A stretch of DNA of 30,370 bases from Chloroflexota bacterium (GTDB lineage: Bacteria; Chloroflexota; Anaerolineae; UBA1429), in the NCBI GenBank assembly GCA_014360745.1, contig JACIWY010000001.1:1-30370 (forward strand), given 5' to 3'. Below are positions 12,006 to 16,856 of this stretch, in pieces. Every line of letters begins with the position of its first letter. The stretch's first letter is position 1. Both the position numbers and the translations under genes were made by a program. The notes beneath the pieces were generated by a model, which saw only the letters and a list, made by a program, of their open reading frames with translations, searched no databases and was not told where the DNA came from.

Positions 12006-13103
12006 TCAGCCCAGGCACAGCCCGGCCGTGAGTTCGTAATTGCGCTTGTAATCCCCGCCGGCCTCCGGCCCATAGGCCAGAATGGGTATGGCGCCCTCGT
12101 GTCGCGAGCCGTGCGAACGCAAACGGACGGGCACGCGCACGGCCTCGAACGTGCCGAACACGGTGTAGGCGTCGGCCAACACCAACAGGTCGCCAATGCG
12201 CTCGGCCATGAGCTGAAAGCGGTCGGCGGCTTGCTGGCGGGGATGCACCTCTTCCACGCCGGGTATTTCGCTCAACAGGGCACAGGCTTGATCAAGCGCG
12301 CCAAGGTCGGCCAAGTGCACATAGGCCGCGCCCCCTAGATTGCCGTGATGCACCACGTAACGATCCTTAATGATCGGGATGGCCCGCGCCACGATCCCAC
12401 CGCTCGCCAGAGCCTTCTCCAGATCGACCCCCCATTCCTTGCCCGACATGCCATGGTCGGCCGTCAGCAGAATCCGATGCCTCGGCGCGTCCTCCGCGAT
12501 GTGGCCCAGAGCGACATCCAGCCCTCGGATGTGCGCCTGTGATTCGAGCGACTCGGGCGCATAGCGATGCATCATGCCGTCGGTAGTGGCGCAATAGACC
12601 AGGTCGGGGTCTTGCTCTCGCAACAAGAGCGCCAGCGCCTTTAGGAGCCAGAGGTTCAGATCGGGGGCATAGATATCGGGGGGTGGCCCCAGCTTTTGCA
12701 CCATCTCGGCGTCGGGCGCCTCGGCGCATAGGGCATAATCGGCACCCTGGCCCACCAAGTCGAGGAGCTTTTGCTTGGCCGTAAGCGCCGCCGTCGAGAG
12801 CCCTCGCCGCCGCGCCCGATCGAGGATCGTGGGCCGGCAGAGAAACTCGGCCGATTCCATATAGGTCTCCCGGCCGGTACGCGGATCTAACACATAGTTG
12901 GCCGTGATGCCGTGCTCGTTAGGGGGCGTGCCGGTGACGATTGAGACATTGTTCACATTGGTCACCGTGGGCACCACCGCCTGCCCAACGGCGTAATAGC
13001 CCGCCGCGGCCAGGTCGTCGATCGCCGGGGTGGGCGTGGCCTCGATATAGCTCGGATCGAGGCCGTCGATACAAAGGACGACGGTTTTCGGCCAAGGAGC
13101 CAC
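12006..13103 (-). CDS. Alkaline phosphatase superfamily protein, phosphonoacetate hydrolase (PhnA)-like
   Basis: GTG 13103. CIDG, PTVTNVNNVSIVTG.PP..HGITANY (Thr nucleophile), TDGMMH, TADHGM, LRSHG: metal ligands intact. Confidence 0.75.
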   Translation of the reverse strand: MAPWPKTVVLCIDGLDPSYIEATPTPAIDDLAAAGYYAVGQAVVPTVTNVNNVSIVTGTPPNEHGITANYVLDPRTGRETYMESAEFLCRPTILDRARRRGLSTAALTAKQKLLDLVGQGADYALCAEAPDAEMVQKLGPPPDIYAPDLNLWLLKALALLLREQDPDLVYCATTDGMMHRYAPESLESQAHIRGLDVALGHIAEDAPRHRILLTADHGMSGKEWGVDLEKALASGGIVARAIPIIKDRYVVHHGNLGGAAYVHLADLGALDQACALLSEIPGVEEVHPRQQAADRFQLMAERIGDLLVLADAYTVFGTFEAVRVPVRLRSHGSRHEGAIPILAYGPEAGGDYKRNYELTAGLCLG

Positions 13104-13107
13104 CCGC

Positions 13108-14127
13108 TCACCCCTTTTTGCGCGCAAGAACTCGCTTGACCGCGCTCACGATATGGCGCGCCGACAGCCCGTAGCGGTCGATGATCGTTAGATAGGGGCC
13201 CGATTCGGCAAACGTGTCGCGCACGCCCACGCGCTGCATCGGCACCGGCTCGTTTTCGACCAACAGCTCGGCCACGGCGCTGCCCAGGCCGCCGTAATAG
13301 ATATTGTTCTCGGCGGTTACCAGGGCGCCGGTCTCACGCGCGGCCTGCAAGATGATGGCGGCATCCAGCGGCTTGAGCGTGTGACAATCGATGACGCGCA
13401 CCTCGATCCCCTCAGCGGCCAACATCTCGGCGGCCAACAGCGCCTGGGCGGTCATGTCACGGTTGGCGACGATGGTCGCATCCTCGCCCTCGCGCACCAA
13501 CACCGCCTTGCCGATCTCGAACGGATAGCTTGCATCAAAGAGCAAAGGCACCGGATCGCGGGTAAAGCTCAAATAGACCGGCCCGCGCCAACGTGCCGCC
13601 GCATGGACGGCCTGCTTGGTCGTCGGCGAATCGGCCGGGGCAATGACCGTCATGTTGGGCAACGCACGCATGATGGTCAGATCTTCCTGCCCCTGATGGG
13701 TCACTCCATCGGGAGCCGGGGTGATCCCGCCATGGCTGGCCGCGATCTTGACGTTGAGGTTCGGGTAGCAAATGCTGTTGCGCACCATATCCAGCGCGCG
13801 CAGGGTGATGAATACGGCGTAGGTGGAGATAAAGGGGATCAAGCCGGTGGTGGCCATGCCGGCCGCCGCCGCGGTCATGTTCTGTTCGGCGATGCCAAAG
13901 TTGATCTCGCGCCCCGGAAATTGACGGGCGAATTCGTCGGTCCTGATCGCTTTGGAGACATCGGCGTCGAGCACGACCACCTCGGAGATCTCGCGCCCCA
14001 CCTCCAGGATCGCCTCGGCATAGGCAAAACGTGTGGCCTGGCGCGACGCCTTTTGGAACAACGTCCCCTCGCGCAGCAAGGGCAAGATCTCTGCGCGCAG
14101 ATGATGGTAACGGCTATCGGCGGACAT
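13108..14127 (-). CDS. Split transketolase, C-terminal (pyrimidine-binding) subunit
   Basis: ATG 14127 with GGGAGGGG RBS. ATRFAY, GIAEQNM, DGVTHQ, DLTIMRALPNMTV, DCHTLKPLD, GGLGSAVAE. Confidence 0.88.
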   Translation of the reverse strand: MSADSRYHHLRAEILPLLREGTLFQKASRQATRFAYAEAILEVGREISEVVVLDADVSKAIRTDEFARQFPGREINFGIAEQNMTAAAAGMATTGLIPFISTYAVFITLRALDMVRNSICYPNLNVKIAASHGGITPAPDGVTHQGQEDLTIMRALPNMTVIAPADSPTTKQAVHAAARWRGPVYLSFTRDPVPLLFDASYPFEIGKAVLVREGEDATIVANRDMTAQALLAAEMLAAEGIEVRVIDCHTLKPLDAAIILQAARETGALVTAENNIYYGGLGSAVAELLVENEPVPMQRVGVRDTFAESGPYLTIIDRYGLSARHIVSAVKRVLARKKG

Positions 14128-14986
14128 GATTCCCCTCCCAACCCGCAGCGGCGGCGATTTCGGCCAGGGCCTGCTCTGCTTCAACGTCGTTGGGCGCGCG
14201 ACCGTGCCACAACGGGTTGTTCTCCATGAAACTCACCCCCTTGCCCTTCACCGTCTCGGCGATGATCATCGTCGGTTGCCCCTCGACCCGACGGGAGGCC
14301 TCTAGGGCGTCGACCACCTGAGCCATGTCATGGCCGTCGATCTCGAGCACGTGCCAGCCAAAGGCCCGCCACTTGGCGGCCAGTTCGCCCATGGGCAGGA
14401 TGTTGTCGATGAAATCGTCGTTCTGGATGCGGTTGCGGTCGGTGATGGCGGTTAGGTTATCCACCCTGAACGCGGCAGCGGCCATGGCCGCCTCCCAGAT
14501 CGACCCCTCCTGCGACTCGCCATCGCCGATGAGCACCCACACGCGGTAATTCTGCCCTTGAATGCGCGCGGCCAGCGCCATGCCCAACCCGGCGGAGAGT
14601 CCGTGGCCCAACGAGCCGGCACTCATGTCCACGCCCGGCGTCTTGCACATGTCGGGGTGACCTTGCAACAGGCTGCCGCAGCAACGCAACGTCGTGAGAT
14701 GCTCGAGGCCAAAATAGCCGCGCTCGGCCAAGGCCGAATACCAGGCCGGGCAGGCATGCCCCTTGGAGAGGATGAAACGATCGCGATCGGGCCAATCGGG
14801 GCGCGTTGGATCGACGCGCATCACTCGAAAATAGAGCGCGGTGATGATGTCGGTCGCCGAGAGCGACCCGCCCGGATGGCCCTCGCCGGCGGCATGGGTC
14901 ATGCGGATAATATCGGCGCGGATGCGGGCGGCCATCCGTTTAAGCTCGTCAATAGAGAGCGGCGGCGCGAAATTCAGGCGATCCAC
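14114..14986 (-). CDS. Split transketolase, N-terminal (ThDP-binding) subunit
   Basis: GTG 14986 with GGGAGG RBS. GHPGGSLS, DRFILSKGHA, LQGHP, GSLGHG, GDGESQEG..N, WHG. Confidence 0.9.
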   Translation of the reverse strand: MDRLNFAPPLSIDELKRMAARIRADIIRMTHAAGEGHPGGSLSATDIITALYFRVMRVDPTRPDWPDRDRFILSKGHACPAWYSALAERGYFGLEHLTTLRCCGSLLQGHPDMCKTPGVDMSAGSLGHGLSAGLGMALAARIQGQNYRVWVLIGDGESQEGSIWEAAMAAAAFRVDNLTAITDRNRIQNDDFIDNILPMGELAAKWRAFGWHVLEIDGHDMAQVVDALEASRRVEGQPTMIIAETVKGKGVSFMENNPLWHGRAPNDVEAEQALAEIAAAAGWEGNHVRR

Positions 14987-15047
14987 GAAGCAACCCTCCC
15001 GATTTAAAGAATTGGCAGGAAAGAGCGCGCTCAAGCCCTTCCCCGCT

Positions 15048-16448
15048 TTAGCGTCGTCTGTGTCGCCGCGCCCAGGCCGCCAATCCGCCCAAACCGCCCA
15101 ACAACAGCAACAGGCTCGCCGGCTCCGGCACCTCGGAGGGCGGCATGGGCGTCGGGGTGAGCGCGACAGTCGGTGTGGGCGATTGGATCGGGATATAGGG
15201 CAACGTCGGTGTCGGGGTGGCCGTCGGCGGGCGGCAATCGGGGCGTTGCACCGTGGCCGTCGCCGTCAGCGGAGCGGGCAAGTTGTCAAAGGAAACGGTA
15301 GCCACAAAGACGACATTGCCCGGATCCAGCGCGGTGATCTGCGCCTGCCAACTCACTGTGGTCATCTGGCCGGGCGCCAGGTCCCCCAGGCCAACCGTCG
15401 CATGGTATCCCGGCGCCAGGTTCGTCCCCGCCGGCAAGCCCAGCATCGCCGAGCCGTTGCGCAGCACCTCCAGCGAGGTATTCCTCACCGTGAGCAGCAG
15501 CTCAAACGGCTCGACGGAGCAGCCCACGCTGGCCGGCACGCTCAGGGCAGCCGTCCCCCCCGCCGGCCCGGCGAGGCCGTACACCGTACTCACCGTGTAT
15601 TCGGCGTTTGCAGCCAGCGCACGGGGGTTCCACCAATAGACCACCGTGCTATCGCCGATCTCTGCAGTGGGGTCGACGGTATAATCCCACGCCGTGCCAA
15701 AGATGCCGACGCCACCGCCGCGCGAAGCCTGCCAAGTGGCGATGGCCAGGCGATCGGGCACCGTCAGCCCAAAGCCGCGCGCGAAACCCATGCCGCGCAG
15801 CGCGTCCTCGTCAAAATCGGGCGATTCGTAGGCTTTGTAATAGTCGGGGATGCTCCCGCCCTCGAAGCTCATCTCGCGGTTTGTCGTGCCAAAGCCCGGC
15901 AGGAAAAAGGGGGCATAATCGTTATCGCCGACTTGAATATCCAGCACGCAGCGCACCCCGGCCTGCAACGCCTCGCTGCTCTGGTTGCGCACCGTATAGC
16001 GGATATGGGCCATATCGGGCCGGCCAGAGTAGGGATTGGTGAAAAAACCGATCTCTTGGGTGACGAGTATCCCCTCCGCCTGCCAACGGGTGACGATGGC
16101 CTGGCCCTGGATGTGCGGCCCCTCTGCGGGCGTCAGCTCATCCAGACGAATGTCGATGGTCTTGTCGCCCTTGATCAGGCGCAGTGAGGGGAACCCCGTG
16201 CGGCTCGCCTCGGGAAAGCCAAACAACAGGCGCTTGTTCTCGTCGCCGCTGACATCGGGTGAGCCCCCTGTGGTGCCCATGGTCATCGTTCCTTCGGCCG
16301 CTACCACGATCTTGATGTACGGGTTCTCGATACTAACCCCTGCCTGCGCCCTAGGCGCGGGGCCCTTGGCCGCCACGCCGGGCGTCAGGAAAGCCAAAAC
16401 CAGCCCCAATACCAGAATCCACATGCCCGCTCGTCGAGAAATAGTCAT
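15048..16448 (-). CDS. Exported surface protein with Pro/Thr linker and C-terminal PEP-CTERM-type sorting signal
   Basis: ATG 16448. Signal peptide, beta-rich domains, PTATPTPT..SPTPT..TPTPMPP, then EVPEPASLLLLLGGLGGLAAWARRHRRR; 466 aa. Confidence 0.85.
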   Translation of the reverse strand: MTISRRAGMWILVLGLVLAFLTPGVAAKGPAPRAQAGVSIENPYIKIVVAAEGTMTMGTTGGSPDVSGDENKRLLFGFPEASRTGFPSLRLIKGDKTIDIRLDELTPAEGPHIQGQAIVTRWQAEGILVTQEIGFFTNPYSGRPDMAHIRYTVRNQSSEALQAGVRCVLDIQVGDNDYAPFFLPGFGTTNREMSFEGGSIPDYYKAYESPDFDEDALRGMGFARGFGLTVPDRLAIATWQASRGGGVGIFGTAWDYTVDPTAEIGDSTVVYWWNPRALAANAEYTVSTVYGLAGPAGGTAALSVPASVGCSVEPFELLLTVRNTSLEVLRNGSAMLGLPAGTNLAPGYHATVGLGDLAPGQMTTVSWQAQITALDPGNVVFVATVSFDNLPAPLTATATVQRPDCRPPTATPTPTLPYIPIQSPTPTVALTPTPMPPSEVPEPASLLLLLGGLGGLAAWARRHRRR

Positions 16449-16487
16449 CGCCCTGCCTCGCTTGCCTGCCCCTAGAATGTTGGCTTG

Positions 16488-16516
16488 AGGATAGTAGCAG
16501 CCCCGCTCGTCGTCAA
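16488..16516 (-). promoter_or_regulatory. Sigma70-type promoter for the PEP-CTERM gene
   Basis: TTGACG-N17-TATCCT on the minus strand. Confidence 0.55.
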
Positions 16517-16547
16517 GTGTCCGTTGGCTTGTTAAGACATGGCGATC

Positions 16548-16597
16548 GGAGCGAGGGCCCCTGCCCGACACCTTGGCGGCGAGGACGCTCGCGCTCC
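16548..16597. repeat. Second GGAG-tagged REP-like inverted doublet
   Basis: + strand GGAGCGAGGGCCCCTGCCCG (16548-16567) and - strand GGAGCGCGAGCGTCCTCGCCGC (16597-16576), both similar to 4615-4637. Confidence 0.6.
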
Positions 16598-16856
16598 CCC
16601 GATGTCGTTCGGCGGAGGGCTTGGCAGGGTACGGGGCTCCGCGCCGCACCTGGCCCTATCACATTCGGCTCCCCCTGCCCAATCGATTACAATAAAAGAA
16701 GCGGTTGATTCCAAGCCCAGGTTCGCCGCGGCAAATAAAAAGGTTCGCCTCTTGCCGCACCAAGTGCCACACAGGTGCTGGGCACTTTCCCGGTGCCTGG
16801 CGTCTTGAACCTTAAAGGCGAACTGGGGAGCGTTACTCATTCGGGGAGGCTACCAC

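Follow-up and report, generated by a model that had tools for sequence, protein, structure and literature searches.

A lineage-specific gene trio joins an accessory split transketolase to a PhnA-like hydrolase in Anaerolineae

Why should the two halves of a transketolase (TK) be followed within a few nucleotides by a relative of the phosphonoacetate hydrolase PhnA? The question is raised by contig JACIWY010000001.1 of a Chloroflexota bacterium (Anaerolineae, UBA1429; assembly GCA_014360745.1), of which we analyzed a stretch of 30,370 nucleotides, hereafter the window. Three consecutive minus-strand open reading frames, listed below, span 12006-15034 and encode an N-terminal TK subunit (TK-N), a C-terminal TK subunit (TK-C) and a PhnA-like hydrolase. 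A sequence-only reading of the window had proposed that they catabolize a phosphono-sugar. We find that the linkage is confined to one narrow, family-level lineage of Chloroflexota and is not a widely conserved pathway. The interpretation that we favor, with middling confidence, is a lineage-specific operon whose hydrolase removes a phosphorus group linked to the substrate of an accessory TK.

12006..13103, minus strand: PhnA-like metallohydrolase, 365 amino acids from GTG 13103
13108..14127, minus strand: TK-C, 339 amino acids from ATG 14127, with its stop at 13108
14114..14986, minus strand: TK-N, about 290 amino acids from GTG 14986, with an alternative TTG start at 15034

The gene coordinates given by the sequence-only reading were exact, and translation of the three frames reproduces both of the junctions that it described. 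TK-N ends at 14114 and TK-C begins with ATG 14127, an overlap of 14 nt, and the GTG of the hydrolase gene at 13103 lies 4 nt past the TK-C stop at 13108. Start sites were derived from the translations, and the resulting lengths agree with database gene calls of 339 amino acids for TK-C and 365 for the PhnA-like protein. The 4-nt gap suggests translational coupling of the hydrolase in the window, and the hydrolase is probably co-transcribed with the TK subunits.

Profile searches confirmed the identities assigned to all three genes. TK-N matched PF00456 at 180 bits and NF004559 at 327 bits; TK-C matched PF02779 at 133 bits, PF02780 at 105 bits and NF004559 at 286 bits over the second half. The three Pfam matches are above their own cut-offs, as in a two-subunit transketolase dependent on thiamine diphosphate (ThDP). 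The ThDP and catalytic-His motifs, previously read as intact, are indeed so: TK-N contains GHPGG, SKGH, GHPD, GDGESQEG and NRIQND, and TK-C aligns over residues 30-337 with the solved split TK of C. hydrogenoformans (ChyTK; 6YAJ; 336 bits, E 1.7e-99), including an H..G...DG..HQ segment. Because the genome also encodes a full-length TK (contig C151, a 676-aa open frame with 472 bits on PF00456), the split enzyme is accessory and not housekeeping, as had been supposed. A second Transketolase_N fragment, at 142.7 bits, is present on the 682-bp contig C1013 of the same genome (L008:39-680) and could be another split TK or contamination, for which the estimate in this genome is 8.8%.

The sequence-only reading had drawn attention to three deviations in acceptor-side motifs, among them the replacement of a phosphate-binding Ser by Ala. 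All three are present: DADVSKAIRT, PAPDG and RALDMVR align with DADLSKSTKT, VGEDG and RAFEIIR of ChyTK. They are, however, features of an entire clade and not peculiar to this enzyme. The TK-C clade is strongly conserved, with 70-77% identity in a protein search across metagenomes including Desulfobacterales, and carries the signature DADV-SK[S/A]I, P[G/A]PDG and RALD[M/Q]VR. All of 120 clade members have RALD[M/Q][V/I]R and almost all have P[G/A]PDG. At the position of the supposed phosphate-binding Ser, 92 of them carry S, 13 A, 8 P and 5 G. Ala is also common at this position in ordinary split TKs (DADLAGATKT and similar). Since Ser predominates in the clade and Ala is frequent outside it, we rejected the Ser-to-Ala change as a marker of a phosphonate substrate, and the argument built on it fails. 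As judged from these alignments, the signature exists as described but is a property of the clade as a whole and does not point to a phosphonate substrate in particular. Three other anion-binding residues, which we take to be the equivalents of E. coli R358, H461 and R520, are all retained in the alignment of TK-C to 6YAJ.

The third gene encodes a true relative of PhnA with an intact predicted catalytic set, in keeping with its earlier description as PhnA-like. Its sole strong NCBIfam match is TIGR02335, whose cut-off of 407.55 it misses with 234.9 bits; PF01663 matches at 114.2 bits and covers the whole catalytic domain (residues 15-324 of the protein, positions 1-323 of the 342 in the profile). 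The protein aligns over nearly its full length with the solved PhnA structures 1EI6 (P. fluorescens; E 3.3e-54) and 3SZY (S. meliloti; E 3.9e-50), relative to which the Thr nucleophile segment, the Asp/His metal ligands, a K-x-K pair and a YVVHHG segment are all kept; here we combine the alignment with residue roles as we understand them for PhnA. Across 30 aligned family members, D21, T56, K118, K120, D183, H187, D224, H225 and H339 never vary. No signal peptide is visible in the protein.

A search of 5.8 billion proteins placed the hydrolase in a large family of relatives of 360-370 amino acids. Ten other representatives score 196-247 bits on the TIGR02335 model, far below its cut-off of 407.55, so we regard the family as a sister of PhnA and not PhnA itself. 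One source names many of its members "phosphonoacetate hydrolase", another "alkaline phosphatase family protein".

Is the linkage of the two enzymes more than an accident of one genome? The order TK-N, TK-C, hydrolase recurs at loci L012, L013 and L156, and at L154 and L155 the contigs end inside TK-C. The hydrolases of these five contigs are the closest relatives of that in the window, to which they are 74-77% identical, and TK-N of L012, L013 and L156 is 87-89% identical to its counterpart. The flanks of the trio in all five differ from those in the window, and the trio has therefore moved or persisted as a unit. In one genome from another genus of the same family, the hydrolase gene lies at a contig end. 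On the tree of the hydrolase family, the TK-linked members form one terminal clade. The trio is thus shared with other genomes, yet only where the hydrolase is at least 73% identical to that of the window.

Elsewhere, the TK clade sits in islands for the catabolism of sugars, polyols or sugar acids. It directly follows a gene for a xylose-isomerase-like TIM-barrel protein (AP_endonuc_2), and its frequent companions are an MR_MLE enolase-superfamily dehydratase, a zinc-dependent alcohol dehydrogenase (Zn-ADH), a 2-hydroxyacid dehydrogenase, GntR and sugar ABC genes. No gene for phosphoenolpyruvate (PEP) mutase (Ppm), phosphonopyruvate decarboxylase (Ppd), PhnW or any other phosphonate function was found in any of the TK-clade loci annotated. 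In genera g20 and g24 of the window's own family, loci L132, L133, L134, L135 and L127 share a conserved block of MR_MLE, AP_endonuc_2, TK-N and TK-C; upstream of it a Zn-ADH gene is annotated in L134 and inferred in L135. This block looks like an uncharacterized sugar-acid route that ends in a transketolase.

In some of these loci another hydrolase occupies the position behind TK-C. Exo_endo_phos and HAD genes follow it on the same strand at L098:602-3325 and L124:795-3845, and a sulfatase-family gene does so at L126:8417-11797. With the PhnA-like gene of the window clade, a different anion-ester hydrolase thus stands behind TK-C in each of three lineages. Upstream in L126 are genes for an acetolactate-synthase-like ThDP enzyme, a 2-hydroxyacid dehydrogenase and a Zn-ADH.

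We judge it likelier than otherwise that TK and hydrolase act on one route, because the genes are tightly spaced, the trio persists as a unit and other hydrolases recur after TK-C. The TK would be an accessory alpha2-beta2 enzyme that moves a two-carbon (C2) ketol unit from or to a sugar-like compound bearing a terminal phosphorus or other anionic group. Such a transfer is the most likely reaction given that the ThDP and His machinery and three of the four anion-holding residues are kept. The hydrolase, a cytoplasmic PhnA sister with a predicted two-metal, Thr-nucleophile site, would then strip the phosphorus group from the small fragment left by the TK; alternatively, it would remove that group from the substrate before the TK acts.

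Several observations weigh against such a coupling. No TK gene lies beside any of the 85 PhnA-like genes examined whose products are 64% identical or less (80 species-representative genome loci, together with L014-L016 and L157). Conversely, the PhnA-like gene is absent beside the TK clade in 15 of 15 relatives' loci that were cross-checked, and no PhnA-like gene occurs within 7 kb of 80 metagenomic split-TK loci. The latter came from a metagenome scan that applied generic patterns from the TK-clade alignment and hence recovered mostly ordinary split TKs; with only 4 of the 80 at the clade-member mark of >=65% identity, the set serves as an ordinary split-TK control. The TK clade was found in 0 of 50 genomes with the hydrolase family, a result to be read as the lack of a positive association and not as avoidance, because few genomes carry the clade at all (1 of 400 sampled across the phylum). 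The hydrolases of the window and the L012 group are less alike (74-76% identity) than their TK subunits (83-89%). The sequence-only reading had already noted that a PhnY-like dehydrogenase, an isomerase and a transporter are missing from the window; no trio copy contains any of these partners or a regulator, and phnW, phnY, a transporter and a phosphonoacetate-responsive LysR/GntR regulator are absent from the window and from the trio copies of its relatives. With about a dozen distinct contexts in all, the three lineages in which a hydrolase follows TK-C could be a coincidence, and a recently formed operon can bring together genes of unrelated function.

Several of these points would fit another history, in which a gene for a phosphorus-scavenging hydrolase was inserted downstream of an accessory TK operon in a single ancestor and is simply transcribed along with it, the two enzymes sharing no pathway. 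Both families move among widely differing gene contexts, on the hydrolase tree the linkage arose once, genomes elsewhere show no co-occurrence, and accessory genes are absent. Against this history stand the 4-nt gap, with the translational coupling that it suggests in the window, and the survival of the trio as a unit, its proteins still about 75-88% identical, where the flanks have changed. On balance we consider it rather unlikely.

If the hydrolase does serve the TK route, which bond does it cut? Contexts of the hydrolase family elsewhere are highly diverse and tie it to organophosphorus, often phosphonate, metabolism, although they do not fix the bond. Of 82 loci, about 9 have phosphonate genes next to the family member, and these belong to three distinct branches of the family tree, so that a substrate with a carbon-phosphorus (C-P) bond is credible. 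Genes for Ppm, Ppd and a 2-aminoethylphosphonate (AEP) transaminase accompany family members at L064, L068 and L093. At L064:3750-10349 and at L068, both from Dehalococcoidia, the operon comprises genes for two methyltransferases, the PhnA-like protein, PEP mutase, a split phosphonopyruvate decarboxylase and AEP transaminase; the PEP mutase scores 330 bits on TIGR02320, above cut-off. In a Planctomycetota genome, too, PEP mutase, phosphonopyruvate decarboxylase and AEP transaminase genes lie near a family member. The presence of a PhnA-family hydrolase within what appears to be a phosphonate biosynthetic cluster (L064, L068) was unexpected.

At L089:4884-9693 (Rokubacteria), a PhnW-like class-V transaminase gene is followed by the PhnA-like gene and then by that for an 838-aa DAO and GCV_T protein, and the operon contains no aldehyde dehydrogenase gene. 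The 838-aa protein is demethylase-like and resembles dimethylglycine dehydrogenase. The arrangement hints at catabolism of N-methylated aminophosphonates, with the hydrolase possibly acting directly on phosphonoacetaldehyde. At L021:676-7077, genes for two citryl-CoA-lyase-like proteins, a class-V PhnW-like transaminase, a SauS-like acylating aldehyde dehydrogenase (493 bits) and an HAD hydrolase accompany the PhnA-like gene. Partly similar clusters occur in L028, L031, L036 and L040; the five loci come from Desulfobacteraceae, Syntrophaceae and unclassified Proteobacteria. The cluster of L021 is the fullest, and L028 and L040 share only part of it. The L021 cluster may represent an AEP route through phosphonoacetyl-CoA that replaces PhnY.

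Further family members lie beside genes for PhoD-like and PF04185 phosphoesterases in Gemmatimonadota, Gammaproteobacteria and Bryobacteraceae. In 13 Dehalococcoidia genomes (loci L032-L065), a TreT-like glycosyltransferase gene lies upstream of the PhnA-like gene, and a GHMP kinase, an aspartokinase-like ACT protein and a GT2 glycosyltransferase are encoded downstream, an arrangement that is conserved and contains no phosphonate genes.

We put cleavage of a C-P bond and of a phosphorus-oxygen (P-O) bond at roughly equal odds. The hydrolase could be a phosphate mono- or diesterase whose target is a phosphorylated compound that the TK makes or consumes, and so the functional equivalent of the Exo_endo_phos and HAD genes of L098 and L124 or of the sulfatase gene of L126, which occupy the same place behind TK-C. 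The neighboring phosphoesterases just described would fit such an activity, as would the match to PF01663, an NPP-type phosphodiesterase family, and enzymes of the alkaline-phosphatase superfamily are known to be promiscuous. However, the nearest characterized relatives of the protein are C-P hydrolases, with which it shares the K-x-K and YVVHHG segments, and the phosphonate-gene contexts of its family point the other way. In this specific form, a phosphate esterase bound to the TK route, the explanation is possible but unlikely.

The phosphono-sugar pathway of the sequence-only reading takes the opposite side. By analogy with sulfo-sugar breakdown, the TK would strip C2 units from a phosphono-sugar or phosphono-ketose to give phosphonoacetaldehyde or phosphonoacetate, whose C-P bond the PhnA-like enzyme would hydrolyze. 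In its favor are the fully kept predicted PhnA catalytic set, the three phosphonate-associated clades of the hydrolase family, the three retained TK anion-binding residues, the documented sulfo-TK precedent (PMC9594981) and other phosphonate-type genes in the genome (PalA/Ppm-like and PhnD-like). At L089 a PhnW-like transaminase gene lies immediately before the hydrolase gene; since no dehydrogenase gene separates the two, the hydrolase could conceivably act on the aldehyde itself. By contrast, we know of no natural phosphono-sugar substrate. The PhnY-like dehydrogenase, isomerase and transporter that the pathway calls for are missing from every trio copy, Ppm, Ppd and PhnW are missing from every TK-clade locus, the TK clade and the hydrolase family do not co-occur outside this lineage, the Ser-to-Ala change is no marker and the hydrolase is far under the PhnA cut-off. 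The proposal rests on the linkage and is weakened because that linkage is limited to one narrow clade; beyond it comparison lends no support, the partners of the TK clade being enzymes of sugar and sugar-acid metabolism. We consider the pathway improbable. A compact C-P route, in which the variant TK makes or consumes phosphonoacetaldehyde from a phosphono-ketose and the hydrolase cuts the C-P bond directly, with no PhnY-type dehydrogenase, seems to us likewise improbable. If it were true, the PhnA sister family would be an unrecognized class of C-P hydrolases.

How does the trio compare with known systems? ChyTK (PDB 6YAJ/6YAK; PMC7661550) has the same two-gene alpha2-beta2 architecture and shares the ThDP, catalytic-His and R358/H461/R520 equivalents, but reads DADLSKST, VGEDG and RAFEIIR where the window clade has DADV-SK[S/A]I, P[G/A]PDG and RALD[M/Q]VR. 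Operons with phnA show a phnW-phnY and LysR/GntR context in 71 of 89 cases (PMC3266647). The window hydrolase shares with PhnA an alkaline-phosphatase-superfamily fold, as predicted from sequence, together with the Thr motif, the Asp/His ligands and the K-x-K pair; it is about 40 residues shorter, with several deletions, and lacks the phnW-phnY and LysR/GntR context.

In the sulfo-TK pathway, the split TK SqwGH acts with YihQ, SqvB, SqvD, SqwI and SqwF; the sulfoquinovose cluster encodes the sulfoquinovosidase YihQ, SqvB/SqvD, the RpiB-like SqwI, and SqwF or a sulfoacetaldehyde dehydrogenase (PMC9594981). The likeness lies in a split TK that serves the catabolism of a sugar with a terminal anion and leaves a C2 by-product carrying the anionic group (PMC9594981). 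When compared by gene content, neither the window nor the annotated TK-clade loci have YihQ, SqvB, SqvD, SqwI (PF02502) or SqwF. We would treat the analogy as a mechanistic precedent only. The phosphonothrixin system reportedly has a split-TK-like ketotransferase with an acetolactate-synthase homolog, and hence a split TK homolog that is said to act on a phosphonate substrate. That system is biosynthetic and clustered with PEP mutase, whereas no PEP mutase gene was found in the window or the TK-clade loci, and the PalA/Ppm-like gene of this genome lies on contig C439 with no TK.

That gene (L151:8405-10364, minus strand) scores 345.8 bits on TIGR02321 against a cut-off of 374.4 and 281 bits on TIGR02320 against 319.55. 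It adjoins a HIBADH-like dehydrogenase gene, with FGGY kinase, class II aldolase and sulfatase genes nearby. A PhnD-like binding protein is encoded on another contig. No PhnJ was found in the genome, and models for phosphonopyruvate decarboxylase, PhnX and PhnW gave no genome match at curated cut-offs. None of the phosphonate-type genes lies near the trio, and the C439 gene is away from any TK.

Two features upstream of the trio bear on its extent.

15015..15046, minus strand: terminator-like hairpin, a 12-bp stem and a T-rich tail, directly after the stop of the PEP-CTERM gene
15048-16649, minus strand: PEP-CTERM protein gene, the upstream neighbor of the trio, with its stop at 15048

The hairpin is a consensus match only, in a scanned region where the count of such sites is not above shuffled expectation. 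It appears to mark the 5' border of the three-gene unit, and since it closes the PEP-CTERM gene with a T-rich tail, that gene is probably not co-transcribed with the TK genes. GGGAGGG, a strong ribosome-binding site, lies 7 nt ahead of the TK-N GTG at 14986, and with the hairpin upstream the trio therefore looks like its own transcription unit. The URO-D-like gene, the gene for a 396-aa methyltransferase, the PEP-CTERM gene and the other neighbors in the window do not recur beside the trio or beside either family elsewhere. A wider conserved block around the trio was rejected, as the sole neighbor match elsewhere was to an unrelated alpha/beta hydrolase. The URO-D gene near the PhnA-like gene of a Planctomycetota genome (L016) is not homologous to the URO-D-like gene of the window at E 1e-6.

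At present, the linkage is a lineage-specific curiosity and not a general pathway. "Phosphonoacetate hydrolase" labels on a sister family that scores below the PhnA cut-off may inflate or distort counts of phosphonate degradation in environmental surveys. The TK clade is an accessory group, 70-77% identical across phyla and resident in sugar and sugar-acid islands. If the two enzymes share a route, as we favor, the operon would provide a handle on two uncharacterized enzyme groups at once.

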